Assembly: GCA_963924815.1 (NCBI GenBank)
Contig: CAWURO010000092.1
Span: forward strand, 1-57,888
Length of the DNA stretch: 57,888 nucleotides
Origin: an uncultured Bacteroidia bacterium
GTDB taxonomy: Bacteria; Bacteroidota; Bacteroidia; NS11-12g; UBA9320
Reading direction: 5' to 3'
Both the position numbers and the translations under genes were made by a program. Position 1 is the stretch's first letter; the number at the start of each line of letters is the position of its first letter. Below are positions 9,691 through 57,888 of this stretch, in pieces. The notes below the pieces were generated by a model. It did no database searches and was not told the DNA's origin. It saw only the letters and a program-made list of their open reading frames with translations.

Positions 9691-9695
9691 CCGCA

Positions 9696-15843: not shown

Positions 15844-15849
15844 GAAACC

Positions 15850-17334: not shown

Positions 17335-17345
17335 TACTAAACAAA

Positions 17346-18683: not shown

Positions 18684-18702
18684 ATAACATATATATGACG
18701 AA

Positions 18703-18736
18703 GGGAGTAGTAGGTATGCTTACTACTCCCTTTTTC
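18703..18736 (+). terminator. Strong rho-independent terminator between the PKD/CBM gene and GH16
   Basis: GGGAGTAGTA-n8-TACTACTCCC is a perfect 10-bp stem, followed by TTTTT. Confidence 0.75.
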
Positions 18737-18755
18737 TTTGTAATGAGTATATAAA

Positions 18756-19862: not shown

Positions 19863-19881
19863 GAGAGATTATGTAAAATAC

Positions 19882-19911
19882 AAAAGCATCACTATAAACG
19901 ATGCTTTTTTT
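19882..19911. terminator. Bidirectional terminator between convergent GH16 and methyltransferase genes
   Basis: AAAAGCATC-n9-GATGCTTTT stem flanked by A and T runs. Confidence 0.65.
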
Positions 19912-19924
19912 ATATCCTGAGAGT

Positions 19925-20566
19925 TTACTTTTTAGCAATCAAATAGTCTGCAAATCCATACCAATCCCAATATACTCCTCCGCGAACATATCCCTTAGTA
20001 AGTAGCTGTAAGGGGATTTTAATTGGCATTAATGCAATATTGATCCAGCTTCTATTTTTACCTGCCATCTGCACCTTAAAACGGTGATTCATGAAAATGT
20101 TGGCTACCTCTTTTAAGGAGTATATGCGTACATGGGTAGCATCATCAAAAAAATTAAGCGTTTCTTTTTTACTAGGGAAGGTAGCGCTAGCTTCACAAGG
20201 AAACTCAATATAAAAAAGTCCGCCTTTTGAGAGTTTCTGAAAAAGTAAAGGAAGTACTTTATCTCCGTTGTACAAATGCTCTATCACATGACTCATGATA
20301 ATTACATCATAGGTGTCATTTGGGATTGCATCAAAGTTTAATTCTGTTAGATCTAGTTGAATAAACTCATCCATATTGCGAATATCCTCTTCCGTATTAT
20401 CGTAGCTTACATCGCGGTCTACACCCGTATAATGACAATTAGGGAGCCACTTCTTAGTAATAGTACTCGAGTGACTTCCAGAGCCAATATCCAGTATTCG
20501 GAGGTCTTGTTTCGCTGTGTATTTACCGATGGTTTTGAGCCTAAAAGGCTTTAATTTAGTGCTCAT
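19925..20566 (-). CDS. Class I SAM-dependent methyltransferase
   Basis: 213 aa. Motif I ILDIGSGSH and a later IIMSHVIEHL. Starts 3 nt after the fumC stop. Confidence 0.8.
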   Translation of the reverse strand: MSTKLKPFRLKTIGKYTAKQDLRILDIGSGSHSSTITKKWLPNCHYTGVDRDVSYDNTEEDIRNMDEFIQLDLTELNFDAIPNDTYDVIIMSHVIEHLYNGDKVLPLLFQKLSKGGLFYIEFPCEASATFPSKKETLNFFDDATHVRIYSLKEVANIFMNHRFKVQMAGKNRSWINIALMPIKIPLQLLTKGYVRGGVYWDWYGFADYLIAKK

Positions 20567-20569
20567 GAT

Positions 20570-21973
20570 CTAAAATCCGAGTTCCATGTCTCCACACATA
20601 TCTGCAGGCACAACCCATTCGTCAAATTCTGCTGCTGTGAGATAACCTAACTCAACTCCAGCTGCTTTTAGTGTTGTGTTTTCTTGGTGTGCTTTTTTAG
20701 CAATTTTAGCGGCTTTGTCATAACCAATGTGGGTGTTTAAGGCGGTTACCAGCATAAGCGAACTATCTAATTTATTTTTTATTTCAGTAAGATTTGGCTC
20801 AATACCTACTACACAGTTATCGTTAAACGATAGACATGCTTGACCCAATATACGGGCAGATTGAAGAACATTGGCAGCAATTAGAGGCTTAAAAACATTA
20901 AGCTCAAAATGACCATTAGAACCTCCTATGGTAACGGCAACGTCATTTCCCATAACTTGAGCACACACCATTGTAAGTGCTTCACATTGTGTTGGGTTTA
21001 CCTTACCCGGCATAATACTAGAGCCAGGTTCATTGCTAGGGATTAAAATTTCTCCAATTCCGCTTCTTGGACCTGAGCTTAGCATACGAATATCATTTCC
21101 AATTTTCATACAGCTTACTGCGGCTCTTTTCAGAGCACCATGAAGTTCTACCATTGCATCATGTGCAGCAAGTGCTTCAAATTTATTAACTGCCGTGCGG
21201 AAAGGCATTCCCATCTCTTCCGCTATTTTGCTTGCGACAAGTTCCGCATAATCTTTTGGAGCATTAAGCCCAGTGCCTACAGCAGTGCCACCCAAAGCTA
21301 ATTCTTGTGCTCCTATCATTGCATTTTCAATAGCGATTATACTCATTTCAAGTTGTCGTCGGTAGCCGCTAAACTCTTGCCCAAGTGTAAGTGGGGTAGC
21401 ATCCATAAAATGTGTACGACCTATTTTTACGATATGCTTAAACTCGCGTGCTTTTTTCTTAAAAGTATCTTTTAATACTTGCAACCCAGGTATACTAAAA
21501 TCTACTACTTCCTTATAGACGGCAATACTCATAGCCGTTGGGAATGTATCATTACTGCTTTGCGATTTGTTTACATCATCATTTGGGTGAAGAAATTTGT
21601 CGTTATCCATTAAACTGCCGCCTTTCAATACATGACCTCGATTTGCAATCACTTCGTTCACATTCATATTACTTTGTGTTCCGGAGCCTGTTTGCCAAAT
21701 AACCAATGGAAACTCATCGTTTAGCTTCCCAGCAATTATTTCATCGCATACTTGTGCGATAAGTTCTGCCTTTTCTTTAGGAAGTATGCCTAATTCATAG
21801 TTGGTAAGCGCAGCGCATTTTTTTAGAACTCCAAAAGCCTTTATAATTTCTAGGGGCATTACTTGGTTACCAATTTTGAAGTTTTCTAGAGATCGTTGGG
21901 TTTGGGCTGCCCAATATTTTGTGGACTCTACTTTTACTTCTCCTATACTGTCTCTCTCTATTCTGTATTCCAT
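20570..21973 (-). CDS. fumC: Class II fumarate hydratase
   Basis: Signature [15 protein letters not shown] and the typical N-terminus [14 protein letters not shown] chose ATG 21973, because TTG 21994 lies inside the predicted -7 box. Confidence 0.96.
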
Positions 21974-25593: not shown

Positions 25594-28311
25594 ATGATTA
25601 AAACTTTATTTCTTGTTGTTTCCCTACAGCTTGTGGGGCTCTTATCTTCAGCACAAACATATACTCTATCAGGGCGATTAATAGATGCCAATGGTCAAGG
25701 TATAGCATACGCTAGCATCGCGTTAAGTGATAGGATAGATACCTCTACGATACAATTTTCCATTGCCAAAGAGGACGGAAGCTTTATGATGAAAGGCATC
25801 GTAGCTGGCGATTATATTATTCTCGCAGCTTCAGTTGGATACGAGGTGGAGCATAAATTCGTTGCAATCGATAGTGATTGGTCTAATTTTAAATTAGAGA
25901 TGACGAGTTCTGATATTTCTATGAAAGAAATTCTGGTGCGTGCTAAAAAAATACCGGTGCTTATAAATGGCGATACTGTGATTTATAACAGTAGCAGTTT
26001 CAAAACACAATCAAATGCGAATGTGGAAGATCTAATCAAAAAAATGCCTGGTATTCAAGTGAATAAAGACGGATCAGTTTCGGTAGAAGGGCAGGCTGTA
26101 ACTAAGGTTTTGATTAATGGTAAAGAATTTTTTGGAGGCAATATCGAAGCTGCTACTAAAAATCTTGACGCTTCACTGGTAGACAAAGTGGAGGTAATAG
26201 ATAAAAAAACCGATGATGATGAGTTTACAGGAGAAGAAGGAAACCAGCGTGAGAAGGTCATTAATTTAGTGCTTAAAGAAAATAAGGCGCAAGGTTACTT
26301 TGGAACAGTTAGAGCCGGTTATGGCAGTGATGATTACTATGATGTGCAAGGGAATGTCAATTTTTTTAAAGACGAAACACAGCTCTCTATAATTGGCGGA
26401 TTAAACAATATAAACCGCAATTTGTACGGATGGAATGATATGCAGACGCTCAATACGTTTGAAATCACCCCATTCAATAATAGTCAGAACACCTGGTGGT
26501 GGAATAGTGGCGTTAAAAGTTACGAGGGTGCGGGAGCAAATTTGCACCTTGAACCGATTAAAGGCATGAAAACCGATGTAGCCTATGTAATCACCAATGA
26601 ACATAACATAAATGAAAGTTCGACCAATTCTGAGTTGTATCTTACCAACAATAACTTGTTCTCTGACAGATTAGAACTGGGAAATGGAGATAAAGGGAAT
26701 CACCAATTAAATATTAAAACAGAGTATGAGCCAGATACCTTGAATAGGCTTGTTTTTAGAGCACAGCTCAGTAAGGAAGTGGGACAAAATTTTGACGGTT
26801 CCCTTACGTTGAATATGGATAGCTTAAGGCGCGTACTTAATACAGGAGTTACGAGAAATGTAAAGGATTTAGGTAATGAAAAATCAATTTCTAAAATTCA
26901 CTGGACGAAAAAAAGCAGCGAGAAAACAGGGAATATGCTGCTAGCATCATTGTATTACGGCGCATCAAAAAGTGGGAATAATGCGAGCAGTTTTTTTAAT
27001 ACAGTACCCTATATACTCGATTTTCCGACGAATGAGCCGGATTCACTTCGCAAAGAGCTTACCTCATCGGAAAATACGATAGCCACAACCGCAATGTACC
27101 AGTTTCAGTTAAACAAAAAATGGACCATAAAACCAGGTGTTAATTGGATGATAAGTGAGTATAATCATAATTTTTCGTGGTTACCAGCATCGCAAGAGAA
27201 GTTGCTCAATAACAGTCCTCAGGGTACGGTAAAAGCACAAAATTTAGAATATTATATACACATAAGTTACAAGCTAGATTCGTTTACGACCTTATATGTG
27301 ATCCCAGAACTAAATCAAGTTATTGAAAATAGAAGTTTTACTACGGACCAAGAAAATGCTTACTCGTTCCAGCAGTTTTATTTCATTCCTTATATGTTTT
27401 TAAAATCTGCAAAAGGACATAAATATGATTTCTCCTTAAATTTACGTGCTAATTTGAATAGACCGGATATTAGTCAAATTTTGCCTGTGATTGACAATAC
27501 AAATCCCTATAAAACTACGGTTGGTAATATCAAGTTGCAAAATTCTATGAACTACTCATCCAATTATCGTTATCAGCGTATATTGGGTTTAGGTAAAACA
27601 GTCTTTTTTAACGGGTGGAATTCATTAAGTATTAATCCCGTAATCAATAGCAATGAAATTACACCAGAGAATTATGCCGTATCTAGTGTTCTCAATTTTA
27701 AGAATAGAGTTTATTCAAATCAGTCAGCGGGTGTTACATGGCCCATTAGCGCAATAAAAGCGACTCTAGGTGTAGACGTTGACTACGACTTTGGGCAGGC
27801 TTATTTTATTCAAAATTCTATTGAAATAAGAAGTCTAAATCATACCATATCGGTAGGACCGAGGATACAGTTTAATGAGTTTGATATGTGGAGTTTAGAT
27901 GCGAATTATATGGTGAATAGACAAACTGGAAGTATCGGAGGCGTTAGCAATAACGGCTATTTCTATCACGAAATTGATGCAGAATTTGTTCTTACTCCCA
28001 TGGAAAGATTAGAGTGGAGTACGTCATTGTATTTAGAAATATATGGAGCAAACAATGCCGTGGGTGCTAAGAGTATACCTATATTAAGTTCAGAAATTTC
28101 CTTCTTTATAGATAAAGATCAAAAATGGAGCATTGGTGCAAAAGCATACGATATTTTGGATAAAAATCAGAATCTTTGGAGATGGTGGAGTAACAATGGG
28201 TTTATACAAAGTCAGAGTAATGCCATACAACGGTATGTAATGGGAACCTTGACGTATAAAATCAATAAGCCCAATAAAAAAGGTAAAACAGAATCAGAAT
28301 ACAATTACTAG
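25594..28311 (+). CDS. Outer membrane beta-barrel family protein (TonB-dependent-receptor-like, CarboxypepD_reg plus plug plus barrel)
   Basis: 905 aa. Signal peptide ...LLSSAQ, YTLSGRLIDANGQGIAYASI, plug-like NVEDLIKKMPGIQVNKDGSVSVEGQAVTKVLINGKEF, and a long alternating beta-strand C-terminal region. Confidence 0.85.
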   Translation: MIKTLFLVVSLQLVGLLSSAQTYTLSGRLIDANGQGIAYASIALSDRIDTSTIQFSIAKEDGSFMMKGIVAGDYIILAASVGYEVEHKFVAIDSDWSNFKLEMTSSDISMKEILVRAKKIPVLINGDTVIYNSSSFKTQSNANVEDLIKKMPGIQVNKDGSVSVEGQAVTKVLINGKEFFGGNIEAATKNLDASLVDKVEVIDKKTDDDEFTGEEGNQREKVINLVLKENKAQGYFGTVRAGYGSDDYYDVQGNVNFFKDETQLSIIGGLNNINRNLYGWNDMQTLNTFEITPFNNSQNTWWWNSGVKSYEGAGANLHLEPIKGMKTDVAYVITNEHNINESSTNSELYLTNNNLFSDRLELGNGDKGNHQLNIKTEYEPDTLNRLVFRAQLSKEVGQNFDGSLTLNMDSLRRVLNTGVTRNVKDLGNEKSISKIHWTKKSSEKTGNMLLASLYYGASKSGNNASSFFNTVPYILDFPTNEPDSLRKELTSSENTIATTAMYQFQLNKKWTIKPGVNWMISEYNHNFSWLPASQEKLLNNSPQGTVKAQNLEYYIHISYKLDSFTTLYVIPELNQVIENRSFTTDQENAYSFQQFYFIPYMFLKSAKGHKYDFSLNLRANLNRPDISQILPVIDNTNPYKTTVGNIKLQNSMNYSSNYRYQRILGLGKTVFFNGWNSLSINPVINSNEITPENYAVSSVLNFKNRVYSNQSAGVTWPISAIKATLGVDVDYDFGQAYFIQNSIEIRSLNHTISVGPRIQFNEFDMWSLDANYMVNRQTGSIGGVSNNGYFYHEIDAEFVLTPMERLEWSTSLYLEIYGANNAVGAKSIPILSSEISFFIDKDQKWSIGAKAYDILDKNQNLWRWWSNNGFIQSQSNAIQRYVMGTLTYKINKPNKKGKTESEYNY

Positions 28312-28342
28312 TCACGTAAAAAAATATAAATTGCAACCCGAA

Positions 28343-29134
28343 ATGAGTGAACCATTACACGTACCAACAGTAGCAGAATTAACCGCAAAAGGAGAAAAAC
28401 CAGATGTTTTGTTTTGGGTGGGTTGCGCAGGAAGTTTTGACGAAAGAGCCCAAAAAATAACAAAAGCCTTTGTCAAAATATTAAACAATGTTGGAATAAA
28501 ATATGCCATACTTGGAACTGAGGAAAGCTGTACTGGAGACCCTGCAAAACGAGCAGGTAATGAGTTCCTTTTTCAAATGCAAGCAATGGCAAATATTGCC
28601 ACACTTAATGCCTACGAGATCACTAAAATAGTAACCACTTGCCCACATTGCTTTAATACTATCAAAAACGAATATCCTAGTTTAGGTGGCACATATGAAG
28701 TGATTCATCATACGCAATTGTTGCAAGAACTAATTGACGAGGGCAAGCTAACCTTCGGTGCAGATCCCTTTAAAGGTAAAAAAATAACGTACCACGATAG
28801 TTGCTATTTGGGTAGGGCTAATGGTGTGTATGACGCGCCACGAAGAATACTAGAAGCTATGGATGCTGAACTAGTAGAAATGAAACGGTGCCGTAAAAAC
28901 GGCTTGTGCTGCGGTGCAGGGGGTGCGCAAATGTTTAAAGAAGCAGAGTCAGGCACAAAAGAGATAAATATCGAACGAACCGAAGAAGCGATCGCAACGG
29001 GAGCTAGCATAATATCTGCAAATTGTCCTTTCTGTACAACGATGATGGGCGATGGCGTGAAGCATGCAAATATGGAAGGTCAAGTTGAAGTCTTAGATAT
29101 AGCAGAACTAGTTGCGCAAGCCAAAGATTTATAA
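28343..29134 (+). CDS. (Fe-S)-binding protein with two cysteine-rich CCG domains, HdrD/DsrK-like, part 2
   Basis: VGCAGSF...TTCPHCFN and GLCCGAGG...NCPFCTTM fit the CCG-domain pattern. I chose ATG 28343 over TTG 28331. Confidence 0.85.
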   Translation: MSEPLHVPTVAELTAKGEKPDVLFWVGCAGSFDERAQKITKAFVKILNNVGIKYAILGTEESCTGDPAKRAGNEFLFQMQAMANIATLNAYEITKIVTTCPHCFNTIKNEYPSLGGTYEVIHHTQLLQELIDEGKLTFGADPFKGKKITYHDSCYLGRANGVYDAPRRILEAMDAELVEMKRCRKNGLCCGAGGAQMFKEAESGTKEINIERTEEAIATGASIISANCPFCTTMMGDGVKHANMEGQVEVLDIAELVAQAKDL

Positions 29135-46849: not shown

Positions 46850-47125
46850 TTTGTGATTAAAAAAGTGGTTAACAATGGAAACGAATATACATACCAAATT
46901 GAAAAGAAAAAGAAAAATCGAAATTACTTGTAGTAAAATATACTATAAGCGAATATCGTTTTAGGTGAATTGCATTATTATTTTTTTTTACTTAAAACCC
47001 ATATTCTGTTATTTGTAAAGCTAAGTAGACTGTTTTTAGTGAAGTTGTAATTACAAGCTTTATAGGGCTCTTCATATAGGGATAACAACCTTCTTTTTCA
47101 TTTGCTAGTTGAATAGGTTTCCCGC

Positions 47126-47133
47126 TATCTTCG
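47126..47133 (+). promoter_or_regulatory. -7-like box TATCTTCG (one mismatch), 4 nt upstream of ATG 47138
   Basis: Read directly. Confidence 0.3.
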
Positions 47134-47137
47134 CAGC

Positions 47138-47629
47138 ATGTTCCCAACACTTACAGGAAATGGACGAATATGGATTTATGTAGCCAATAGACCTCTTACG
47201 GAAACCGAATCCTTAACTATACAAGAAAGACTTTCGGTGTTTTGTGAAAACTGGGCAGCTCATGGTAATCAACTTACAGCTGAATTTGTCATTTTTCATA
47301 ATCAACTCTTGGTATTAGGTGTAGATGAGGAAGTAGAAGCAGCTTCAGGTTGCAGCATAGACCAGACTTCTGCCATATTTAGACAAATTGATAAGGAAAT
47401 GAACTTGGACCTTTTTAACAGAATGAATCTCGCCTTTTTAGATGAGGATAAGGTTCGATTGGTACAGCTTCCAGAAATTACGCAAGCATTTCGTGTAGGG
47501 ATTATCCATCCTCAATCTACATTCCTAGATAATACCATAGGAGTTCTTTCTGATCTTCGGATTAGATGGCAAGTTCCTTTTGAAAAATCATGGGCGTTTA
47601 AAAGAGTTAAATCTTTAGAAAGCAGCTAA
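47138..47629 (+). CDS. Conserved hypothetical protein
   Basis: 163-aa ORF with no signal peptide. I recognise no motif. Followed 13 nt later by tsaB. Confidence 0.6.
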   Translation: MFPTLTGNGRIWIYVANRPLTETESLTIQERLSVFCENWAAHGNQLTAEFVIFHNQLLVLGVDEEVEAASGCSIDQTSAIFRQIDKEMNLDLFNRMNLAFLDEDKVRLVQLPEITQAFRVGIIHPQSTFLDNTIGVLSDLRIRWQVPFEKSWAFKRVKSLESS

Positions 47630-47642
47630 TCAATCCTAAAAA

Positions 47643-48323
47643 GTGCCTAAATTAGTTTTAATAGAATCTTCTGGAGATGTTTGCTCCGCAGCAGTATCTC
47701 ATGGTAGTCAGATTATTGCTGAAAAATCTATTCAAGAGCCCAACTCGCACTCCATTTATTTAGCACGATTTGTAGATGATGTCTTAAAAGAAAGCGGAAT
47801 AGAAATAGCGGAACTTGATGCGGTTGTTATTGGTGGGGGGCCGGGCTCGTATACCGGATTGCGAATTGGCTGTAGTTTAGCCAAAGGTCTTTGTTTTGGT
47901 TCAGGTTTACCTCTTATTGCATGTTCTACATTAGCTGCATTTGCAGCTTCAGCTCAATTACAATTTCCAAAAGCAGAACGTTTTATTTCATTGATAGACG
48001 CACGCAGAATGGATGCATATTTGGGAGTATATGATGAAAACCTAAATTCTATTGCTGAAGAGCAGTTTATCACAATAGATACACAACTGGCTGTTGATTA
48101 TACTCATGGGCAAACTATCGCTTGTGGATCGGGGGCGCTAAAATGGGTGCAAGAATTTAATCCTACAAATATTTTAATCAATTCACATACAGGTATTTAT
48201 GCTCGCAATTTGCTTCCTGAAGCACTTAAAAAATGGGAATCGGGGGAGTTAGAAAACGTGGTGTACTATGAGCCAAATTATATTAAATCAGTTTTTGTGA
48301 CAAAACCCAAGCCTAAACTTTAA
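47643..48323 (+). CDS. tsaB: tRNA threonylcarbamoyladenosine (t6A) biosynthesis protein TsaB
   Basis: 226 aa. LIESSGDVCSAAV and GGGPGSYTGLRIG. GTG start. Confidence 0.9.
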   Translation: MPKLVLIESSGDVCSAAVSHGSQIIAEKSIQEPNSHSIYLARFVDDVLKESGIEIAELDAVVIGGGPGSYTGLRIGCSLAKGLCFGSGLPLIACSTLAAFAASAQLQFPKAERFISLIDARRMDAYLGVYDENLNSIAEEQFITIDTQLAVDYTHGQTIACGSGALKWVQEFNPTNILINSHTGIYARNLLPEALKKWESGELENVVYYEPNYIKSVFVTKPKPKL

Positions 48324-48355
48324 CCCTAGGTTGCAGAAGACTAGCGCTCCTCTCT

Positions 48356-48363
48356 TATATTTG
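48356..48363 (+). promoter_or_regulatory. -7 promoter box TATATTTG, 12 nt upstream of ATG 48376 (start of the four-gene operon)
   Basis: Exact TAnnTTTG. It lies inside the TTG-extended version of the ORF, which supports the ATG start. Confidence 0.45.
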
Positions 48364-48375
48364 CAGCTATATCAA

Positions 48376-50499
48376 ATGAAATTAAGTGCTTTTATAGCTT
48401 TCCTCTTGTTTTCGTTTTGGGCATCTGCGCAAACTTTTAGTGAGAAAACTACCACGGCCTCTAATGTGCGTCTAAATGTATCCAACTCCGGTACGTTTGG
48501 AAATGCATTTCGAGGATATCGCGATGGTTCAGGTAATCCTTCTGGTGAATATCCCGCAGGAAGTGGGGTAGAACATCTGTTTGAAAGTGGCATTTGGTTT
48601 GGCGGTTTAATAAATGGGTCTACGGTGGCGGTGAGCACTGCAGCTGTAGATGCTCCCCAAGGATACAGCACGGGTTCTGCTGGCTTTGAGTTTTATCCTG
48701 AGCCTGGAGCCACACTCAAAGAAATCTCATCACTTCGAAATAGCCCATACTATAATACATTAGCGGTTTCTCACCAAGATTTTGTGGCTACATTTTCCGA
48801 TAAAAATGTCAAAGTACCAGGTACGAATACTCAAATAGGGTCTCATCTTGATCCTCTTTTTGTTAAAGTAACGGCGAAGTCGTATAACTGGAATTATAGT
48901 TTTAGTGATTTTTTCGTTATTTTAGATTACGAACTAGAAAATATTGGTGCTAATACCATAGATAGTGCCTTTTTTGGGCTATGGGCTAATACAGTTGTTC
49001 GAAATATTAATGTTACACCTGCAGGAAGTGGCGGTGCCGCTTTTTATAATAAAGGAGGCAATGGCTATTTTGATAGCTTGCAAATGGCTTACTGCTATGA
49101 TAACGCTGGGGATGTAGGTTTTACCGATAGTTATGTGGGACAAAAATTTTTAGGCGCAGAAGATAAAAATGGCTTCCATCATCCTAATAATGCTTCGTCA
49201 TTTAAAGCTAATTATAATGCTTGGCAGTTTAATAGTACTACAGATCCTATATACTTCCAACCTACTAATGATAATACGCGTTATCAAAAACTAACCCGTG
49301 GATTGAACCAACATCAATGTTGGGATGAAAATAATACCACAAATTCAAGTTGCGGAACTAAAAGCTATCAGCAACAGTTGAATGAAGCTGGTAATCGTTC
49401 AGATTTAGTCTCCGTTGGCCCTTTTAGAGATTTTAAACCAGGAGATAAAATAAAGGTTAGTTATGCCTTTATTTTTGGTAGAAAGAAACAAGATGGCAAT
49501 GCGAATAGCGCCAATAATTTGAAGCAACAGAGTATTTTCTTAGCCAATGCTTCTTGGGCGCAAACTGCATATAATGGTGAAGATGTTAATGCAAATGGCC
49601 TTTTAGATGCTGGTGAAGATATAGACGGAAACGGAAAACTTACACGCTTTATACTTCCTGCACCTCCTGAAATTCCAGAAACCAAGGTGTTGACTTCCGA
49701 AAATAAAATTGAGATTTATTGGGCGCAAAATGCAGAGTCTAGTATAGACCCTATAAGTCAAACCATGGATTTTGAAGGATACAGAGTCTATATGACTAAG
49801 TTAGGTTTTGATGTAAGTTCTGTTCCCAACTTACAACGCGATTTGGTTAAAATAGCGGAATATGATATAGCTAATAATGGGTATAATTACGAGACCGGCT
49901 TTGGCGCGGTAAGACTAGAACAACCAGTTAAGTTTGAAGGAGATGATACCGAATATTGGTATAAATATACCGTTAACAATGTGTTAAACGGCTGGCAATA
50001 TGCTATATCGGTAACCGCTTTTGATAGAGGAAATGCGGCAAGTAACTTAGAGAGTTTAGAGAGTAGTACACTTGCTAATAATTATAGAGCTTATGCAGGC
50101 AAACCAGCTAATGAGAACTTAGGTGTCAATGAGCCGTTTGCATATCCTAATCCCTACATCGCAGGAGCAAGTTGGGAAGGTAAAAGTTCCTTTCAAGAAC
50201 AAAGTCGTAAGTTATACTTTGCTAACCTACCCGCTAATTGTGAAATATATGTTTATACGGCAGCAGGAGATTTCTTAGATAAAATAACACATAATGCGCA
50301 ATACGATGGCAGCGATATTCGCTGGAATCAAACATTTGGCGCAGAGAATACAGATCAAAATGTATTTGCAGGGGGTGAACATGCATGGGACTTGCTTACA
50401 GAGAACACACAAATTATAGCTCGAGGGTTATATATTTTTACGGTAAAAGATTTAGATACAGGCAAGTTATACAAAAGCAAATTTGCGGTAATAAAATAA
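48376..50499 (+). CDS. Secreted multidomain protein of unknown function (unknown N-domain, Ca-binding TSP3-like loop, FN3-like domain, long FlgD-Ig/T9SS-CTD-like tail)
   Basis: Signal peptide MKLSAFIAFLLFSFWASAQ. Also DVNANGLLDAGEDIDGNGKLT, FEGYRVYM, and a C-terminal FAYPNPY...GLYIFTVKDLDTGKLYKSKFAVIK. Confidence 0.8.
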   Translation: MKLSAFIAFLLFSFWASAQTFSEKTTTASNVRLNVSNSGTFGNAFRGYRDGSGNPSGEYPAGSGVEHLFESGIWFGGLINGSTVAVSTAAVDAPQGYSTGSAGFEFYPEPGATLKEISSLRNSPYYNTLAVSHQDFVATFSDKNVKVPGTNTQIGSHLDPLFVKVTAKSYNWNYSFSDFFVILDYELENIGANTIDSAFFGLWANTVVRNINVTPAGSGGAAFYNKGGNGYFDSLQMAYCYDNAGDVGFTDSYVGQKFLGAEDKNGFHHPNNASSFKANYNAWQFNSTTDPIYFQPTNDNTRYQKLTRGLNQHQCWDENNTTNSSCGTKSYQQQLNEAGNRSDLVSVGPFRDFKPGDKIKVSYAFIFGRKKQDGNANSANNLKQQSIFLANASWAQTAYNGEDVNANGLLDAGEDIDGNGKLTRFILPAPPEIPETKVLTSENKIEIYWAQNAESSIDPISQTMDFEGYRVYMTKLGFDVSSVPNLQRDLVKIAEYDIANNGYNYETGFGAVRLEQPVKFEGDDTEYWYKYTVNNVLNGWQYAISVTAFDRGNAASNLESLESSTLANNYRAYAGKPANENLGVNEPFAYPNPYIAGASWEGKSSFQEQSRKLYFANLPANCEIYVYTAAGDFLDKITHNAQYDGSDIRWNQTFGAENTDQNVFAGGEHAWDLLTENTQIIARGLYIFTVKDLDTGKLYKSKFAVIK

Positions 50500-50520
50500 A
50501 GAATTAACACTATATAAAAA

Positions 50521-52734
50521 ATGAAAAAACAATTACTAACACTAGCATTGGGATTATTTAGTATCCTATTTTCATCTGCTCAAACAACTGTGTCTGTCCG
50601 TGACATACAGTATGTAAGTCCTAGTGACTTAGCAAGTTGTAAAGACATAAGTACTTACAATGGTCAAGAAGTAAAGACTGTAGGTGTAGTAATGCATGAT
50701 GGCGGTCTTACAGAATTAGCATCAGGTTCAGTTACTGGAGGTTACAGGCCAGGTGTACACATTATGGACACCGCTGCGGGTGGCGTAATGGGCAATTTTG
50801 CAGGTATTCAAATTCACGGGGTATATTCTGGTCAACTATCTCAGCCGGTAACTGCACTTAATAATCTAGTAGCAGGTATGATTGTAGAAATCGTGGGAAC
50901 AGTAAATAACTTCAGCGGTGAAACGCAAATCTATCCTAAAGATAATTCGTCAGTAACTGTTATAGGAACAACCTCTGCTCCTACTCCTAAAGTAATAAAC
51001 TTGGGTGTACTAAATGACAACTCAAGAAGTAATATATATACGACAGGAGAAGAATATGAAGGTTCGTTAGTGACTTTAGAAAACGTAACCGTGGTTGGTG
51101 TTTCTATTTTCAGTGGCAATAGAGTTAGTTTTGATGTGAGTGATGTTAACGGTAATTTAATTAACGTTTCTGACAGATTTATTGCTCAAAAACAAGGAAA
51201 TTGGAATGCACTTAACGGTTCATCTCCGCAAACAACAGGGCAGTTTGTTCCGCCAGTTGTAGGTACCAAATACGAATCTTTGTCAGGTATAGTGCTTCAT
51301 TCACAAAACGGTTGTTCAGGTGGAACGGGAAGAGGGTATGAATTAAATCCATTCTCTGCGGATCATTACAAAGTAGGGGATACACCTCCAAGCATTACGC
51401 AGGTGAGCAGAAGCCCATTGGTTCCTGCTAGCGGCAATGTAGTTACGCTTTCAGCTAAAATTGTTGATTTTAATGGTACCGTAGTGGACCAAAAATTATT
51501 TTACTCAACAGATTTAAATCAAGACAATACAGCCTTTACTTCGGTTGCTCTGACGCTTAAATCAGGTTCAACCGATGAATTTGAAGCGACTATCCCAGCT
51601 TTTACAGATGGTACAATAGTGAGATACTATATAACTGCAGATGATAATGATGGTAATAAAAGCTACGAGCCTTTTAGTGCTGCAAATGCATCAGGTTCTA
51701 CTTCTTTTTATACCGTTAGAGATAATGGCTTAAGTATTATTGACCTTCAAAAAGTATTAAACCCTCTTCAAGATGCGAGTCCATACAGAGATCAAACAGT
51801 TACCGTAAAAGGATATGTTATCGCAAGTGCTAAGCCTTACGACCTTGAAGATATTTACATTCAAGATAAAGACGCAACAGAGTTTGCAGGCATAAAATTA
51901 ACAGGCAATGCAGACTTGTTAGACTTATGGAGAACTGAAGAAGTAGAAGTAACTGGTAAAGTGGTAGAATCCTTCGGAAACACCCAACTAGAAGTAACTT
52001 CAGTATCTAAAACAGGTAAAACATTTGATGTAGCGCCTATAGAATTACCAGTAAGCGATAGTGCAGGCAGAGCAAATGGAGGAATGGAAAAATACGAATC
52101 TATGCTTGTAAAAATGGTTAATACAGGAGGTAAAGTAAAAATAGCTAACCCACGTTTAAATCCATTTGGAGAGTTCATGATTTCTAATGATACTGCTGCT
52201 AATTTTGCCAATAGTACTAAGGTTCAAACCGGCGTAAAAAATAGCAATAATAATTCTTCGCTTTGGGTGTCTTTAGTGTCTAACGATACTTTTGCCAACA
52301 TAGATGGTATCATGGAAGTAGCAGCAGTGGAAGCTACCAAAGACATGGATATGGACGCTATAGTTGGTGTTATTTATTATGGATTCAGCCAGTTTGCACT
52401 TAAGCCAAGAAATAACGACGATATTATAGGTTTTAGCCAAACACTAGAATCTGCAAAATATGCGAACGATACCGCTAAAAATAGTGTGGTAGAACTTACC
52501 AATTTAGGTGTTTCTTTCTACCCTAATCCTGCCAATAATGTGTTAAATATTCAGGTAGGAAACAATGGTAATGGCACACTTGCAATACGCAGTCTTGAAG
52601 GAAGATTAGTTAGTCAAACTGAAATACTTGGAAGCACCTCTGTGAATATAAGTTCATTATTAAGTGGTGTTTATTTTCTAGAATATACCAACGCAACTGG
52701 GCAGAGAGCTTCTGCTAAGTTTGTGAAACTTTAA
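50521..52734 (+). CDS. T9SS type A sorting domain-containing protein of unknown function with two copies of an OB-fold-like module
   Basis: Signal peptide ...LFSSAQ. Canonical C-terminal sorting domain VSFYPNPANNVLNIQV...LLSGVYFLEYTNATGQRASAKFVKL. The internal repeat is described in the findings. Confidence 0.85.
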   Translation: MKKQLLTLALGLFSILFSSAQTTVSVRDIQYVSPSDLASCKDISTYNGQEVKTVGVVMHDGGLTELASGSVTGGYRPGVHIMDTAAGGVMGNFAGIQIHGVYSGQLSQPVTALNNLVAGMIVEIVGTVNNFSGETQIYPKDNSSVTVIGTTSAPTPKVINLGVLNDNSRSNIYTTGEEYEGSLVTLENVTVVGVSIFSGNRVSFDVSDVNGNLINVSDRFIAQKQGNWNALNGSSPQTTGQFVPPVVGTKYESLSGIVLHSQNGCSGGTGRGYELNPFSADHYKVGDTPPSITQVSRSPLVPASGNVVTLSAKIVDFNGTVVDQKLFYSTDLNQDNTAFTSVALTLKSGSTDEFEATIPAFTDGTIVRYYITADDNDGNKSYEPFSAANASGSTSFYTVRDNGLSIIDLQKVLNPLQDASPYRDQTVTVKGYVIASAKPYDLEDIYIQDKDATEFAGIKLTGNADLLDLWRTEEVEVTGKVVESFGNTQLEVTSVSKTGKTFDVAPIELPVSDSAGRANGGMEKYESMLVKMVNTGGKVKIANPRLNPFGEFMISNDTAANFANSTKVQTGVKNSNNNSSLWVSLVSNDTFANIDGIMEVAAVEATKDMDMDAIVGVIYYGFSQFALKPRNNDDIIGFSQTLESAKYANDTAKNSVVELTNLGVSFYPNPANNVLNIQVGNNGNGTLAIRSLEGRLVSQTEILGSTSVNISSLLSGVYFLEYTNATGQRASAKFVKL

Positions 52735-54191
52735 TGATAAATACGATCTTATCATATACAACAAAAGGACTGAGCACTCTCGTGCTCGGTCTTCTTGTTT
52801 TTATTTTTTCCTGTAAAACGGGAGAGGAGTTACCAAACATGGCACCCGAAACTAAATTGTCTGTAGAAAATATCAACCTTTCAGGAGACAAACGGCTAAA
52901 TAGCACAGTTAACCTTACGTGGTTTGGTACAGACGTAGATGGCTATGTTCGGCATTATGAAATTAAAATAAATGAAGGTGAATGGCTTAAAACTCAAATA
53001 CAAGATAGTACATTTTTATTTGATATTGATCCAGACGCAGACTCAACAGATATTGAGTTTTATGTACGAGCGGTGGACGATGAAAACGTTGCTGATCCAA
53101 CACCTGCTTACATAAAAGTTCCTCTTAAAAATAGTCCACCGATTGTGTCATTTGACAAAGCAAGTGTAACCGAAGATACCACAAATCTTGTTATATCTTT
53201 TCGTTATCGAGCCAGTGATCCAGATGGAGATGCTACGCTAAAAAAAGGCTTTGTACGCGCCAATGATGGAGCATGGTTAGAGATTGATCTCAATCAAAAA
53301 TTAATTTCACTCATCGCAGAAAACACTTCTACGTTAGGCAAAGGCAATGCGAAACTCTATTACGGAATTGAAAAAAATGCTAGTCTGACTATAGATGGTT
53401 TTGTAAATGGGGGTGATAATATCATCCAACTTAAAGTTTCCGACATTGCTAATTCAGAAAGTAAAGTAGATAGTACCATAAATATTTACACCAAGGCTAA
53501 AACAAGTGATTTGCTTGCAGTGGGTGGACACAACAAAAGTTTATCGGCTACATACAATGCCCTAATTGCAACTAATTACCAAGACCTAGACGTAGTAGAT
53601 TATGCCCGTGATGGCGGCAAATACCAACCTAAGTTTTGGGATCCCACATTCCGGCTTCTTGCCATGGAATACGATAAAATTTTCTTTCATACCGAAGAAG
53701 GCACTACAAGTAATCCTTTCTCAGGTCTTGATGGCACTTTGTTAGATTTTGCTGCGCCGGTTATTCAGCAACTTATTGATAATAACAAAAAAGTAATGGT
53801 TTCTACTTCGTTTTCAAATGGAGCCGATTTAAGCATAATTGGAGATATACTATCTATTGATAGTTTTAGCTCGGCTAGAGGACAAGCATTTTTTACTAAC
53901 GACAGTTCTGCGTTAAGTACGGATGCTACATATCCTATAGTACAACCTGCTAATTTCTTACTCGCTGCAGATCCTTTTTACCCCGGAGTAAATGCAGAAG
54001 TATTTTATAATGCTCAACTTACACCTAGTGGTGGTTGGAGTGGTCCAAGATGCGTTGCCATTAGAAGAAGAAACAATAATAATCAAGTGAATTTAGTGCT
54101 CTTTTCTGTTGAACTACATAAGCTTAATAAAAATAGTATTAACCAAAATCAATTAATCTCTAAAATACTGAATGAAGCGTTTAACTGGTAG
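52734..54191 (+). CDS. Lipoprotein of unknown function (two Ig-like repeats plus a C-terminal alpha/beta-like domain)
   Basis: Lipobox LVFIFSC. Repeats carry WFGTDVDGYV...VRAVDDENVADPTPA and ASDPDGDA. The ATG overlaps the upstream stop (TAATG). Confidence 0.75.
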   Translation: MINTILSYTTKGLSTLVLGLLVFIFSCKTGEELPNMAPETKLSVENINLSGDKRLNSTVNLTWFGTDVDGYVRHYEIKINEGEWLKTQIQDSTFLFDIDPDADSTDIEFYVRAVDDENVADPTPAYIKVPLKNSPPIVSFDKASVTEDTTNLVISFRYRASDPDGDATLKKGFVRANDGAWLEIDLNQKLISLIAENTSTLGKGNAKLYYGIEKNASLTIDGFVNGGDNIIQLKVSDIANSESKVDSTINIYTKAKTSDLLAVGGHNKSLSATYNALIATNYQDLDVVDYARDGGKYQPKFWDPTFRLLAMEYDKIFFHTEEGTTSNPFSGLDGTLLDFAAPVIQQLIDNNKKVMVSTSFSNGADLSIIGDILSIDSFSSARGQAFFTNDSSALSTDATYPIVQPANFLLAADPFYPGVNAEVFYNAQLTPSGGWSGPRCVAIRRRNNNNQVNLVLFSVELHKLNKNSINQNQLISKILNEAFNW

Positions 54192-56985
54192 CATTCTAGG
54201 CTTATTATGTACATTGTTTAGCATTGCTCAAAACGGCACTCTTAAAGGGGTGCTTACTGATCAAGAAAGCGGTGAAAAGCTGGTAGGCGCATATGTAAGA
54301 ATAGTAGGTACCTATGGAGCAGCTATCTCAGAGGTAGACGGATCATTTAAAATAGCCAATATAAAACCAGGATCGTATACTATAAACATATCGTTTATGG
54401 GGTATCAGCAGAAGGTCTATAATGATATAGAGGTTCAGGCTGACAAATCAACTGGGCTCAATGTTAAAATGACGGCGCAAACCAATTCCTTTGAAACAGT
54501 TAAAATCGTTGGCAGGAAAAAAGTTGTCGAACTAGATGATGCTAAAAGCACAATAACGTTAAATAAAAAAGACATCGAGGAGATGAATGTGCGAGATGTT
54601 CAAGAGGTGGTTGCAATTCAAGCAGGTGTATCGAAGTCTCCAGATGGTATCCAAATTAGAGGAGCTCGTGTCTATGAAACGTCATTTAATATAGATAACA
54701 TAAGCGCACAAGATCCGCTGGCAGGTACAGGCTTCGGGGTACAAGTATCGAGTGGTTCAATTGGTGAACTAGAGTTGATAACAGGTGGCGCAGGAGCAGA
54801 GCATGACGGGGGTACCGCCGGTGTTATTAGCACATCTATAAAGGAAGGTTCAGATGAATTTCAAGTTGCGGGAAGCTGGCAAAGAGATAATCTCGGAGGG
54901 AATACTAATTCGGGTTGGAATACAGACATAGGCGAATTCTCATTCGGAGGAAAACTTAAAGTGAAGAACAGAAAATTTTATTTCTTCAATAATGTTACGC
55001 TAAACCTTACCGACGATTATTTTGGTCCTACTGCAAAGCAATTGCATAGTTCATTACTAACTGCAAACGATAGTTTTTGCGCACCAAGACAATCCAATCA
55101 ATTTACGCATACCTTAAAACTTTCGCACGAGCTTAATCAAAAAACGAAAATTACGATAACCAACCAACACAGCTTAACCGTAAATCAAAGTACACGGTCA
55201 TTGCAAATTGTGGGATTTGATGCGATTTTAGCCCCAGGTTATCAGTTTGATAGAAGTTTAAATTTAGATAATGCGACTACCTACACACATTCCTCTAATC
55301 TTACAGCTATAAATATAAGACGTACTATCACCGAAAAATTAGTGGGGACACTTACGTTGGGACGACTTTTTACCAATCTGAGAGCAGACGCCAACGGAAG
55401 ACCTTTTAGAACAAATTCAGTAGACCAAGTGTACGACGAGCAAAGCATAGTAACGAATCCAGTGCAAGTTTTTAACCCCAATGGTTTTATTCAATATGTA
55501 CTGCCAGGTCCTGGTTTAATAAATAACGGAGGTATTAGTTCTACCTGGCACGATCACTTTGCTAGTGAGCATACCATCAAAACGAATTTTAAATATTATC
55601 CTAAGGATAAAACCCATCAGATGAACTTCGGGTGGGAGCATAAGCTCAATGAATATCAGTGGGTAGATGTGACAAGACCATGGGTTGGCGCACCTATACA
55701 AATCAATGACAGTATAAGTACTCCGAGTATTAGCATTGGGTCTAGTAATGACATTTGGCGTGTAAAACCAAATAATGGGGGACTATTTTTCAGTGATAAG
55801 ATACAGTATAAAGGCATTATCGCCAATTTAGGAGCGCGTTTCAATTATTGGGCGCCAGGTAAGTTTGTGGATGATGCAGTTAATAATCCAACAGCACCTG
55901 TAATCGATCAAGTAAGAGAAGATTACAAAAGCCACACGGTAAAGGTATTTGGGCTTCGTTATAAAGCTAGAGTATTGCCTAAAATCAATGTGTCGTTCCC
56001 GGTAACCAATAATAACGTACTTTACTTTAACTATAGCCACAGTATGCGTTTACCGCATCCTCGTTTTGTATATGCAGGCTTAGATCCAGAGTATCAGGAT
56101 AGAAGTTTTCTTTCGTTTTTGGGTAATCCAGACTTAAATCCAGAGGTAAATGTAGCTTACGAAATAGGGTTTAAATCGCAGATTAAGAAAAATTTAGGCC
56201 TAACATTAGCGGCCTATAATAACAATCGTTTTGACTACATCGTAAGCCGCAAGGTTATTGTAACGGATCAAACGGGAAGACCTGTAAGTAAGACCATGTA
56301 CATTAACCAGGATTATGCGAAAGTGCAAGGCGCAGAGGCTAATGTTATATGGCGAATGACGTCCTACTTGCGAACATTTACCAACGTAGCCTACCAGCTC
56401 GCCAAAGGTAAAAGTAACAGTGCGAGAGAAAGTAGTTTGCAAATAGAGCAAAATGGGGAAGTGCCGCTCAGCACAGAGCAGTACTTGGCTTGGGATAGAC
56501 CTTGGAATATTAATCTTGGGGTGGTCTTTGCACCAGATACTAATTTAAGCATCTATCGAAAATGGATGAAAGGAACGCAAATTTACTTTAGCTCATCGTA
56601 CCAGAGTGGATTTAGATATACGCCAATGCTTTTAGAAGGATATAATGATTTAGGTAGACCGCTGTATGTTTCAGATCTGAATAATTATTTAGCTGAACGA
56701 GCTACGCCATGGGTAAACAGTGATATTAAACTCACAAAGACATTTGCACAAGGCAAGGGTAAAGGCGTTACACTGAGTGTGGAAGCAAGAAATTTATTTA
56801 ACTATAAAAATGCGCAGGTTATTAATCCCGTAACAGGCAGAGCCTGGGAGCCCGGAGATGATTTGCCCAATAACCAGCGAGATGATCGCTACCTTGGACC
56901 AGAGGAAAGCGGGACACCTCCTAACAATCCTGCTCGTTATACCGCTCCTAGACAAATACTATTCGGCGTTAGCTTTAAATTATAA
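54172..56985 (+). CDS. TonB-dependent receptor with an N-terminal carboxypeptidase-regulatory-like domain (no SusD partner)
   Basis: 937 aa. Signal peptide ...LFSIAQ, GTLKGVLTDQESGEKLVGAYVRI, plug (VQEVVAIQAGVSKSPDGIQIRGARVYE) and a long barrel. Overlaps the upstream gene by 20 nt. Confidence 0.88.
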   Translation: MKRLTGSILGLLCTLFSIAQNGTLKGVLTDQESGEKLVGAYVRIVGTYGAAISEVDGSFKIANIKPGSYTINISFMGYQQKVYNDIEVQADKSTGLNVKMTAQTNSFETVKIVGRKKVVELDDAKSTITLNKKDIEEMNVRDVQEVVAIQAGVSKSPDGIQIRGARVYETSFNIDNISAQDPLAGTGFGVQVSSGSIGELELITGGAGAEHDGGTAGVISTSIKEGSDEFQVAGSWQRDNLGGNTNSGWNTDIGEFSFGGKLKVKNRKFYFFNNVTLNLTDDYFGPTAKQLHSSLLTANDSFCAPRQSNQFTHTLKLSHELNQKTKITITNQHSLTVNQSTRSLQIVGFDAILAPGYQFDRSLNLDNATTYTHSSNLTAINIRRTITEKLVGTLTLGRLFTNLRADANGRPFRTNSVDQVYDEQSIVTNPVQVFNPNGFIQYVLPGPGLINNGGISSTWHDHFASEHTIKTNFKYYPKDKTHQMNFGWEHKLNEYQWVDVTRPWVGAPIQINDSISTPSISIGSSNDIWRVKPNNGGLFFSDKIQYKGIIANLGARFNYWAPGKFVDDAVNNPTAPVIDQVREDYKSHTVKVFGLRYKARVLPKINVSFPVTNNNVLYFNYSHSMRLPHPRFVYAGLDPEYQDRSFLSFLGNPDLNPEVNVAYEIGFKSQIKKNLGLTLAAYNNNRFDYIVSRKVIVTDQTGRPVSKTMYINQDYAKVQGAEANVIWRMTSYLRTFTNVAYQLAKGKSNSARESSLQIEQNGEVPLSTEQYLAWDRPWNINLGVVFAPDTNLSIYRKWMKGTQIYFSSSYQSGFRYTPMLLEGYNDLGRPLYVSDLNNYLAERATPWVNSDIKLTKTFAQGKGKGVTLSVEARNLFNYKNAQVINPVTGRAWEPGDDLPNNQRDDRYLGPEESGTPPNNPARYTAPRQILFGVSFKL

Positions 56986-57075
56986 AATGCCACTTATCGT
57001 ATTACTTGTTATCAAGTATATCAGAAAAAGAAGAAAACGCAGGGCTGATTAGGGTTTTGCTGAGAGGAATTGATA

Positions 57076-57558
57076 CTATTTTTGCTTTAATCGTAAGCTG
57101 GAGCTTCCACAAATGAAGAATGGTGTTTTACTTTCATAATTAACCTTCCTACCTTCTATAAATTCTTCGAGAAGCATTGCATACCTTCGAGTAGTCCTAT
57201 TGCTCAATTTGGAATGGGCAAAAAAAGTACAATATTCAATCTCTCCTTTTGAATTAACATAGTACTTGTGAATTAGAGTAACTACACTATCCTTAGTTTT
57301 GAAATCAAATTTTTCCCGTCCTATAAATCCAGCGAGTTGAATATTAATTGGTTGCAATGCTTGTAAGATTTTGTTTTGCTCTAAAGTGTCATCATCTATA
57401 CTTCTGCAATTAGAATAGTGTTCTACTATACCTGTTTTATTTAAGTATATGGTATCTCGAGTATTGTGACTATCAAACACTTTCTTGTTTTGCTGGGCAA
57501 AAACAAAAGTTGTAGATAGTAGAATGACTATGCTTATAAGTTTTCTTAGATTAATCAT
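57076..57558 (-). CDS. Hypothetical secreted protein
   Basis: 160 aa. Signal peptide MINLRKLISIVILLSTTFVFAQ. No recognisable motif. Confidence 0.55.
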   Translation of the reverse strand: MINLRKLISIVILLSTTFVFAQQNKKVFDSHNTRDTIYLNKTGIVEHYSNCRSIDDDTLEQNKILQALQPINIQLAGFIGREKFDFKTKDSVVTLIHKYYVNSKGEIEYCTFFAHSKLSNRTTRRYAMLLEEFIEGRKVNYESKTPFFICGSSSLRLKQK

Positions 57559-57622
57559 TATACAAAGTTACCTATAGTTTTTAAGTCTACTTTAAACTTT
57601 AGCTTATTCTTACATTTTTGGT

Positions 57623-57888
57623 CTACCCCTCGTACTCACTCAGCACTAGCCATCGGTCACTCTTTGTAGTGATTTCTTGGAGTATTGTTCCCAATCGTTC
57701 GCTTGCTTTAGCAATGATGTCAAAATCTGAAGGATTATTCGCTAGTCGAGATTCTAATTGCTCTTTCTCGGTTTCTAAATCTTCCAATTCTTTTTCCAAG
57801 GTTTCCAATTCGTATTTTTCTTTAAAACTAAGTTTAAGCTTAGGCGCTTCAGTCTTGGCTTTTTCTAACACTAAGGGTGCCGCTTTAG
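57623..57888 (-). CDS. ABC-F family ATPase, C-terminal coiled-coil end (partial, continues beyond the window)
   Basis: The frame is open to the window edge; the 'M' in the ORF track is an internal GTG. The tail KLSFKEKYELETLEKELEDLETEKEQLESRL...RWLVLSE is typical of Uup/ABC-F C-termini. Confidence 0.7.
   Translation of the reverse strand, partial: KAAPLVLEKAKTEAPKLKLSFKEKYELETLEKELEDLETEKEQLESRLANNPSDFDIIAKASERLGTILQEITTKSDRWLVLSEYEG

Follow-up and report, generated by a model that had tools for sequence, protein, structure and literature searches.

A conserved four-gene cassette of Bacteroidia encoding type IX secretion cargo and a SusD-less TonB-dependent transporter: possible uptake of extracellular nucleic acid

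Two described systems come closest to the subject of this analysis, a block of four genes in a 57,888-nt stretch of DNA (hereafter the window) from an uncultured Bacteroidia bacterium (assembly GCA_963924815.1, contig CAWURO010000092.1). One is the ddbABCDEF locus of Bacteroides thetaiotaomicron, which is needed for DNA depletion in that organism and encodes three nucleases, the TonB-dependent transporter DdbC and the DUF5689 protein DdbD; the latter is similar to p202's DNA-binding HIN domain, and its predicted place is on the transporter, and the surface proteins of the locus are described as lipoproteins of the signal peptidase II (SPII) type, with a type IX secretion system (T9SS) unmentioned (10.1101/2025.03.18.642099). 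The other is a gene pair of Riemerella anatipestifer, RA0C_RS04915, encoding a CarboxypepD_reg barrel, and RA0C_RS04920, encoding a DUF5689 plus DUF5017 protein, which are essential for natural transformation (PMC8459023). The block in the window, consisting of genes g1 to g4, may well encode a SusD-less, T9SS-linked TonB-dependent uptake machine, and we propose tentatively that its ligand would most likely be extracellular DNA or RNA, or fragments thereof.

On paper the four genes resemble both systems, in that a transporter is accompanied by an OB-type binder and, in relatives, by a nuclease. As in ddb, a cluster with the look of a polysaccharide utilization locus (PUL) lacks SusD and carbohydrate-active enzymes (CAZymes) and combines a TonB-dependent transporter with an OB/HIN-like surface protein, a proposed DNA binder in ddb; the secreted nucleases are a point of likeness for the cassette in relatives only, being absent from the window and present in 39 related loci. 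The Riemerella pair, which likewise comes from Flavobacteriales, offers a CarboxypepD_reg outer-membrane barrel and an OB-related surface protein of the DUF5689 kind, and the CarboxypepD_reg-Plug-barrel architecture of g4 is common to ddb and Riemerella, a likeness by domain content alone. Unlike DdbD, a lipoprotein whose gene adjoins that of the transporter, g2 is cargo of the T9SS; it has two modules of ExeM type and a Sec signal instead of a lipobox, and its gene is separated from g4 by g3. The ddb locus has no counterpart of g1 or g3, nor of the PorV-like barrel and NHL lipoprotein encoded in relatives. The Riemerella core has two genes, RS04920 being a DUF5689 and DUF5017 (choice-of-anchor J) protein rather than an ExeM-module protein with a Por_Secre_tail, and no member of the g1 family is described there. 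Four points set the cassette apart from both systems, namely the use of T9SS cargo, the duplicated ExeM-type modules of g2, the absence of any counterpart of g1 and g3, and a PorV-like barrel that recurs as a trio with g1 and the transporter.

All four genes lie on the forward (+) strand, as the first-pass annotation of this DNA had read them, and the open reading frame (ORF) scan places g1 at 48376-50499 (707 aa), g2 at 50521-52734 (737 aa), g3 at 52734-54191 (485 aa) and g4 at 54172-56985 (937 aa), which amounts to 2,866 codons where about 2,860 had been claimed. The junctions are also as previously given: a 21-nt gap between g1 and g2, a 1-nt overlap in TAATG between g2 and g3, and a 20-nt overlap between g3 and g4. 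The start of g1 is taken to be the ATG at 48376 and not the TTG at 48331, because homologues are likewise 707 aa long and align over 100% of g1. Each product carries the export signal ascribed to it, with signal peptides ending in AQ in g1, g2 and g4 and a lipobox in g3.

These genes form a conserved cassette and are probably one unit of function, to judge from their constant order and strand, their changing flanks and the restriction of promoter boxes to the positions before g1 or before an upstream nuclease gene. One genome per species was scanned, at least 500 genomes were found to hold a relative of g1, and 80 loci were fetched for synteny. The order g1-g2-g3-g4 on one strand is found in all 80 fetched loci, wherever the contig reaches, with variable flanks, so that the check on gene neighbourhood suggested earlier found complete synteny of the cassette and no case of its loss. 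The carriers are uncultured Bacteroidia and Flavobacteriales, the latter including Crocinitomicaceae, Salibacteraceae, Schleiferiaceae, Vicingaceae, Cryomorphaceae, Owenweeksia and Phaeocystidibacter luteus. The closest relative is a Bacteroidia metagenome-assembled genome (MAG) with proteins 96-98% identical, and tsaB is retained as the 5' neighbour only in the closest clade. At the most distant cassette loci identity is still about 60% for g1 and g4, but about 40% for g2 and about 35% for g3 (range for g2 and g3, 35-45%); across the families of Flavobacteriales the identities are 59-67% for g1 and 55-67% for g4. Spacing among the loci is tight, with a median gap of 21 nt between g1 and g2 and of 49 nt between g2 and g3; in 42 of 56 loci g4 starts inside the reading frame of g3.

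The positions of promoter motifs agree with transcription from the head of the cassette. A Bacteroidota-type -7 box, TATATTTG, occupies 48356-48363 (+) and ends 12 nt 5' of the g1 ATG. Its presence had been reported before and its placement proves to be conserved, although the bare motif TAnnTTTG occurs in the window at chance frequency (83 found against 74.5 expected). When TAnnTTTG was sought within 80 nt upstream of gene starts (<=80 nt; background 3.6%), it was found before g1 in 42/79 loci and in 18/19 of the window clade, and before the extra 5' gene of a longer version of the cluster, described below, in 29/37. The corresponding counts are 1/78 for g2, 5/66 for g3, 0/64 for g4, 1/34 for the PorV-like gene and 0/34 for the NHL lipoprotein gene. 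A promoter at the block head is thus supported by the conserved placement of the box. The window has a second box, TAAGTTTG, at 52716-52723 (+), with 10 nt between its end and the g3 ATG; a role as conserved internal promoter was considered and discounted in view of the few loci with an equivalent before g3. In a scan for sigma-70 promoters and terminators, counts were overall at chance level.

The block had been described as having no hairpin terminator inside it, and neither that claim nor the picture of a plain uninterrupted operon can be kept, because a conserved terminator-like hairpin follows g2. This terminator- or attenuator-like RNA hairpin with its U-rich run lies at 52760-52799 (+), was seen by folding and also flagged by the terminator scan, and starts 26 nt past the g2 stop, within g3 codons 10-22 in the signal peptide region. 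It is a 17-pair stem-loop of -23.1 kcal/mol (z = -7.8), matched in stability by 0/200 shuffles, and it is retained in 13 close relatives despite differences in the encoded amino acids. Across 14 sequences, 97% of the cells of the core 10-bp helix are paired, as against 34-50% in slid controls; double changes that compensate each other are seen at three of its pairs, and covariation is above that of 500/500 shuffles. Among the wider set of loci a hairpin of <= -15 kcal/mol occurs within 130 nt 3' of g2 in 60/65, compared with 18% among background windows and 0-30% for the remaining junctions; a T-rich tail comes after it in 45 of these 60 loci, and the structure is present also in clades whose sequence there is unrelated. 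An Rfam search of 47000-57888 matched no family, and the hairpin is not a repeated element within the window. It may act as an intra-operon attenuator or as an mRNA-stabilizing 3' structure, by which g1 and g2 would be expressed more strongly than g3 and g4; two separate transcription units are disfavoured solely because promoter boxes are lacking before g3. As a defined element within the operon, the hairpin is open to direct test.

From its predicted domains, g4 is a full TonB-dependent transporter outside the SusC family. On the + strand it encodes a signal peptide, a CarboxypepD_reg domain (residues 23-101), the TonB-box-like motif ETVKIVG, spotted by inspecting the translation, a Plug (124-217, Pfam 1.3e-5) and a beta-barrel (437-875, 2.7e-23). 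The SusC/RagA model TIGR04056 aligns with residues 23-147 over model positions 2-118 only, at 50 bits against a cut-off of 368, and a single-sequence search of the PDB with g4 returned nothing useful. A 905-aa CarboxypepD_reg protein is encoded elsewhere in the window, at 25594-28311, with no Plug or barrel match at the threshold used; as a paralogue of g4 it was rejected, the likeness being limited to the N-terminal 170 residues. The next ORF after it (28331-29134) may encode a cysteine-rich Fe-S protein, which its product resembles.

The first-pass annotation had noted a PUL-like architecture without SusD, CAZyme or regulator, and indeed Pfam and NCBIfam models detect none of these in the block, which is flanked by tsaB, a major facilitator superfamily (MFS) transporter, acyl-CoA dehydrogenase and other housekeeping genes. 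With SusC/SusD PULs the cassette shares surface binders, a CarboxypepD_reg-type TonB-dependent transporter and a lipoprotein gene beside the transporter; it differs from them in that g4 is not of the SusC family, in the missing SusD, CAZyme and regulator, and in that two of its surface parts would be T9SS cargo. No SusD_RagB or SusD-like match was obtained for g1, g2 or g3, and the same scan finds the window's SusD at 15850-17334. The latter belongs to a canonical PUL at 9663-19862 (+), found by the same tools and comprising GH92, a SusC-like transporter, SusD, a PKD-domain protein and GH16; thus the organism also has ordinary SusC/SusD systems.

The clue to a ligand comes from g2. Its product has a Sec signal peptide ending in SSAQ, two OB-type modules, at residues 21-290 (nt 50581-51390) and 396-660 (nt 51706-52500), which an Ig-like domain separates, and finally a T9SS type A sorting domain at residues 667-733 (nt 52519-52719), all on the + strand. 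The sorting domain is canonical, as had been recognized (Por_Secre_tail PF18962, 2.3e-12; TIGR04183, 2e-13, residues 667-736), so that g2 bears both marks of type A cargo, a Sec signal and a Por_Secre_tail. The two modules are an internal duplication with 28% identity over 165 aa, and the ExeM_NucH_DNase model, which has 546 positions, aligns at positions 34-235 with residues 456-656 (1.5e-16). This non-catalytic N-terminal stretch of ExeM/NucH is matched by 29/29 g2 orthologues (best 2.6e-20), the ExeM exonuclease model by 6/29, the OB-fold nucleic-acid-binding family PF01336 by 22/29, the tRNA_anti-like family by 10/29 and DUF5689 (PF18942) by 2/29 (best 6.5e-6). The ExeM/NucH alignment of g2 ends at model position 235 of 546 and there is no Exo_endo_phos match in g2. 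Its Ig-like domain resembles that of Porphyromonas gingivalis peptidylarginine deiminase (1.7e-5), and comparison with PDB sequences gave sorting domains, this Ig-like domain and non-significant matches to the OB fold of YhaM only. The earlier verdict of no assignable function and an unknown ligand is too pessimistic in light of the ExeM/NucH OB-type modules, the nuclease gene in relatives and the published DNA systems.

The statement that g1 to g4 are free of catalytic motifs and consist of binding or scaffold domains has fared better. No catalytic Pfam or NCBIfam domain was detected in the whole proteins or in domain slices, a Pfam scan of eight such slices gave no further family, and the models that AlphaFold gave for g1 and g3 contain FN3/Ig-like domains, to which the 22 orthologues of g2 with an OB-fold match may be added.

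The product of g1 is predicted to carry a Sec signal peptide, a beta-rich N-terminal domain (residues ~20-400), a double Ca-loop (403-420), FN3-like domains and, at residues 583-707 (nt 50122-50496, +), a C-terminal domain that by profile comparison is probably a divergent T9SS sorting domain with two insertions. It has more than 2,000 homologues, none of them named and none with a Pfam domain, and g1 itself matches nothing in Pfam or NCBIfam; PDB sequence searches with the g1 and g3 profiles were not useful. The AlphaFold model, of moderate to low confidence (pLDDT 66.8), runs from the beta-rich N-terminal domain through a long helix, a double loop of acidic Ca type and FN3-like domains to a beta-sandwich at the end. 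The tail had been called sorting-domain-like; a direct match to a Pfam or TIGRFAM sorting domain was not obtained, but a wide profile of the tail aligns end to end with the g2 sorting-domain profile in hhalign (probability 93%, E 2.9e-7, full length, two insertions), whereas a narrow profile reaches a probability of 10% only. Sorting domains are usually poorly conserved, yet the tail is among the most conserved parts of g1, as would suit one that remains bound instead of being cleaved off. In one homologue (locus L087) the g1 N-terminal domain precedes a canonical Por_Secre_tail.

Among 101 divergent representatives of g1 the most conserved part is the NVSNSG...ESGIWFGG region, and the conserved polar residues of the N-terminal domain are E66, E105, S118, S132, D135, D142, H157 and D299. 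These residues are suggestive of a binding or catalytic site, for which no family can be named; an enzymatic role for g1 is conceivable.

The lipoprotein encoded by g3 (+) has its predicted lipidation site at Cys27 (nt 52812-52814, lipobox), which is invariant in 46 homologues. Its AlphaFold model (pLDDT 89) shows two FN3/Ig-like domains (residues ~39-250) and a C-terminal alpha/beta domain (~255-485), and no Pfam, NCBIfam or PDB sequence match was found for it. Of the W-x-G-x-D-x-D-G repeats ascribed to g3, one full copy and one partial copy exist, each on an FN3/Ig-like domain, and no more.

A longer version of the cassette bears on its function. In about 39 loci of Flavobacteriales type the four genes are extended on both sides by genes on the same strand, giving a seven-gene version (in locus L030 the extra genes lie at 8601-9896, 18693-19700 and 19687-20901). 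The gene 5' of g1 in the 39 loci encodes a protein of about 431 aa with an endonuclease/exonuclease/phosphatase (EEP) domain and a T9SS sorting domain. Among 23 of its orthologues, Exo_endo_phos is matched by 16/23, the MnuA membrane-nuclease model by 16/23 (4.6e-12), some over the full length, ExeM/NucH by 11/23, at positions 230/281-545, and sphingomyelinase by 3/23, weakly. With respect to ExeM/NucH (NF033681, NF033680), g2 is thus like the N-terminal non-catalytic part and the EEP gene of relatives like the catalytic part, so the two halves appear to be split between two cargo proteins. ExeM/NucH is a single polypeptide, whereas in these clusters the parts lie on two T9SS cargo proteins, with the module duplicated and g2 non-catalytic.

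On the 3' side, 34 loci have a gene for a PorV/PorQ-family barrel after g4 (6e-41, better than the curated cut-off requires), and a further 3' gene encodes a lipoprotein of about 404 aa in which an NHL repeat is weakly matched. PorV and PorQ serve as carriers or anchors of T9SS cargo, as in the PorQ-PorZ pair of the attachment complex. The relatives of the cassette are similar in that such a barrel is encoded beside proteins with sorting-type C-terminal domains, the g1 tail being conserved as if bound. They differ from this precedent in that pairing with a TonB-dependent transporter is not described for the T9SS; the window has no PorV-like gene, and binding between g1 and the barrel is something we infer.

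Relatives of g1 extend far beyond the carriers of the cassette. The earlier suggestion that its motif recurs across the Fibrobacteres-Chlorobi-Bacteroidetes (FCB) superphylum is borne out by 1,946 cluster-level relatives, with homologues named from Marinimicrobia, Calditrichaeota, Zixibacteria, LCP-89 and Delongbacteria. On a Marinimicrobia contig a g2-like gene comes after the g1 homologue, and in LCP-89, Zixibacteria and two other distant loci a g4-like transporter (23-29% identity), a g1-like protein and a PorV-like barrel are encoded in one same-strand cluster. Since beta-helix/NosD-like genes replace the OB and nuclease genes in these distant clusters, the trio looks like a general platform to which accessory genes are substrate-specific additions. 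It is conceivable, though somewhat doubtful, that g1, a g4-type transporter and a PorV/PorQ-like barrel constitute an unrecognized FCB-wide class of TonB-dependent uptake system, in which the extracellular partner of the transporter would be, instead of a lipoprotein like SusD, T9SS cargo held on the PorV-like barrel by an uncleaved sorting domain, accessory genes would set the substrate (OB/nuclease in Bacteroidia, beta-helix elsewhere) and an intra-operon terminator would set the ratio of binder to channel.

Three further loci with g1 relatives have other surroundings. In locus L086 (12188-22112) the gene after a g1 homologue of 41% identity encodes a 5,703-aa LTD/CotH/PKD/SprB protein, in a glycosyltransferase neighbourhood, and in L084 (1925-7647) two tandem g1-like paralogues of 940 and 914 aa adjoin glycosyltransferase genes. 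In L087 a CarboxypepD_reg/Plug transporter gene and a DUF4249 gene (1089-4358) lie on the opposite strand, about 6 kb from the protein with the g1 N-terminal domain, and make up another SusD-less arrangement of transporter and partner.

The core of what had been proposed for the block, surface capture and TonB-dependent uptake with parts displayed through the T9SS, gains support from the synteny, the head-only promoter boxes, the sorting domain of g2, the probable, divergent one of g1 and the PorV/PorQ gene in relatives. The model developed here builds on gene order, domains, synteny, box placement, hairpin conservation and the nuclease association in relatives, and from these we infer the physical contacts, the ligand and the direction of transport. 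In it g4 would be the TonB-powered channel. The g1 protein would be exported by Sec and then by the type IX system to act as the extracellular partner of g4, doing the job of SusD; a PorV/PorQ-type barrel, which lies in the cluster of many relatives and here is presumably encoded elsewhere in the genome, would retain it at the surface by its sorting-type tail, whose conservation is unusual. The g1 protein is proposed as the core partner of the channel because g1 and g4 are equally conserved (~60%) and co-clustered in distant phyla. The g3 protein, whose gene overlaps the g4 start, would be a surface lipoprotein, and g2 would be displayed by the T9SS and capture polymer with two OB-fold modules like those that precede the catalytic domain of ExeM/NucH. 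In relatives the secreted nuclease of MnuA/ExeM type would cut the polymer, and the nucleic acid would be taken up as a nutrient. Transcription would start from the box before g1, and the hairpin after g2 probably terminates or stabilizes part of the transcripts, with g1 and g2 in excess over g3 and g4 as the consequence.

Several observations weigh against this model. The nuclease, PorV-like and NHL lipoprotein genes are absent from the window, no nuclease gene lying within its 58 kb, and the two clades closest to the window likewise have none of these genes beside the cassette. For g2 of the window itself PF01336 and DUF5689 are not significant in Pfam; its ExeM/NucH score is 60 bits, all scores being far under the family cut-off of 300 bits, and every match to a nuclease family falls well short of the curated cut-off. 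With a pI of 4.5-4.9 the modules of g2 are acidic, unlike a simple DNA binder. Foldseek comparison of the g1 model with the PDB returned FN3/Ig matches only, leaving the N-terminal domain without a named fold, and comparison of the g3 model with the PDB and BFVD returned only FN3/Ig arrays, leaving the alpha/beta domain without a family. Finally, the distant trio clusters carry beta-helix/NosD-like proteins and not OB or nuclease genes, which means that the core is not DNA-specific.

The last point bears directly on the possibility that the same architecture handles a different ligand, which might be a glycan, a protein or peptide, or a polyanion of another kind; oligosaccharide would then be bound by the OB modules, and the EEP protein of relatives would be a phosphatase or phosphodiesterase. 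OB folds do bind oligosaccharides as well, the acidity of the g2 modules and the cluster without nuclease in the window clade would suit such a ligand, the core occurs with beta-helix/NosD-like proteins in Zixibacteria, LCP-89 and locus L082, and a few EEP orthologues weakly match the sphingomyelinase model. The balance of matches points the other way, however: g2 matches OB modules associated with nucleases (ExeM/NucH 29/29, PF01336 22/29, DUF5689 2/29), the best matches of the EEP proteins are nucleases (MnuA 16/23 and ExeM/NucH 11/23, against 3/23 for sphingomyelinase), and no version of the cluster in Bacteroidia contains a CAZyme or peptidase. A non-nucleic ligand is accordingly judged unlikely, if a serious contender. 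If nucleic acid is the ligand, its passage across the outer membrane might serve natural transformation instead of nutrition, as the essential Riemerella pair of CarboxypepD_reg barrel and DUF5689 protein (PMC8459023) and the presence of the cassette in Flavobacteriales might suggest. This is very unlikely, given that ComEC, DprA and ComF were not found among the 20 window ORFs scanned, that g2 is only remotely related to DUF5689, that a secreted nuclease in the cluster of relatives suits degradation better, and that the core is common to clusters without DNA-related genes.

The block might also not be an importer at all but a surface structure or a secretion or anchoring module, the barrels exporting or anchoring g1 and g2 for adhesion or gliding. 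The Oar protein of Myxococcus, which serves protein export, would be a model for this; g1 and g2 are made of scaffold-type domains, the 5,703-aa SprB/LTD/CotH protein adjoins one g1 homologue, and PorV and PorQ are known in just this carrier or anchor role. Nevertheless the complete Plug of g4 and its TonB-box-like motif are features typical of importers, the overlap of the g3 lipoprotein gene with the g4 start is often seen with partner lipoproteins of importers, and the association with nuclease and OB modules suits the processing of a substrate, so that export or anchoring seems quite unlikely. Scarcely credible, and already contradicted by the synteny data, is the notion that the four genes are neighbours by chance or in one lineage only and do not work together: the strong terminator-like hairpin between g1-g2 and g3-g4 would speak for it, but order and strand are constant in 80 loci from several families with changing flanks, hardly any promoter box stands before g2, g3 or g4, and relatives of g4 and g1 are encoded together in other phyla.

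In water, much phosphorus and nitrogen is present in the form of dissolved DNA. If the proposed uptake of nucleic acid is correct, the cassette would be a route of DNA/RNA scavenging in abundant planktonic Bacteroidia, present in at least 500 species-level genomes and entirely unannotated; the carrier genomes are small, with one complete MAG chromosome of 2.87 Mb and one source contig of 2.4 Mb. It would extend the concept of DNA-utilization loci from gut Bacteroidales to environmental lineages, with an architecture based on the T9SS. The recurrence of the trio in FCB phyla suggests an undescribed general coupling of type IX secretion to TonB-dependent import, and no account of the cluster came up in literature searches on the trio and on T9SS-linked transporters.

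The composition of the window is uniform (GC 0.35-0.42), so that nothing suggests a foreign island. A 163-aa ORF at 47138-47629, with no Pfam match, is kept together with tsaB directly 5' of g1 in the window clade only. Antisense (-) ORFs of 81-116 aa inside g1, g2 and g4, at 48372-48671, 51861-52211 and 56206-56451, are probably spurious, since the genes on the + strand have thousands of homologues.

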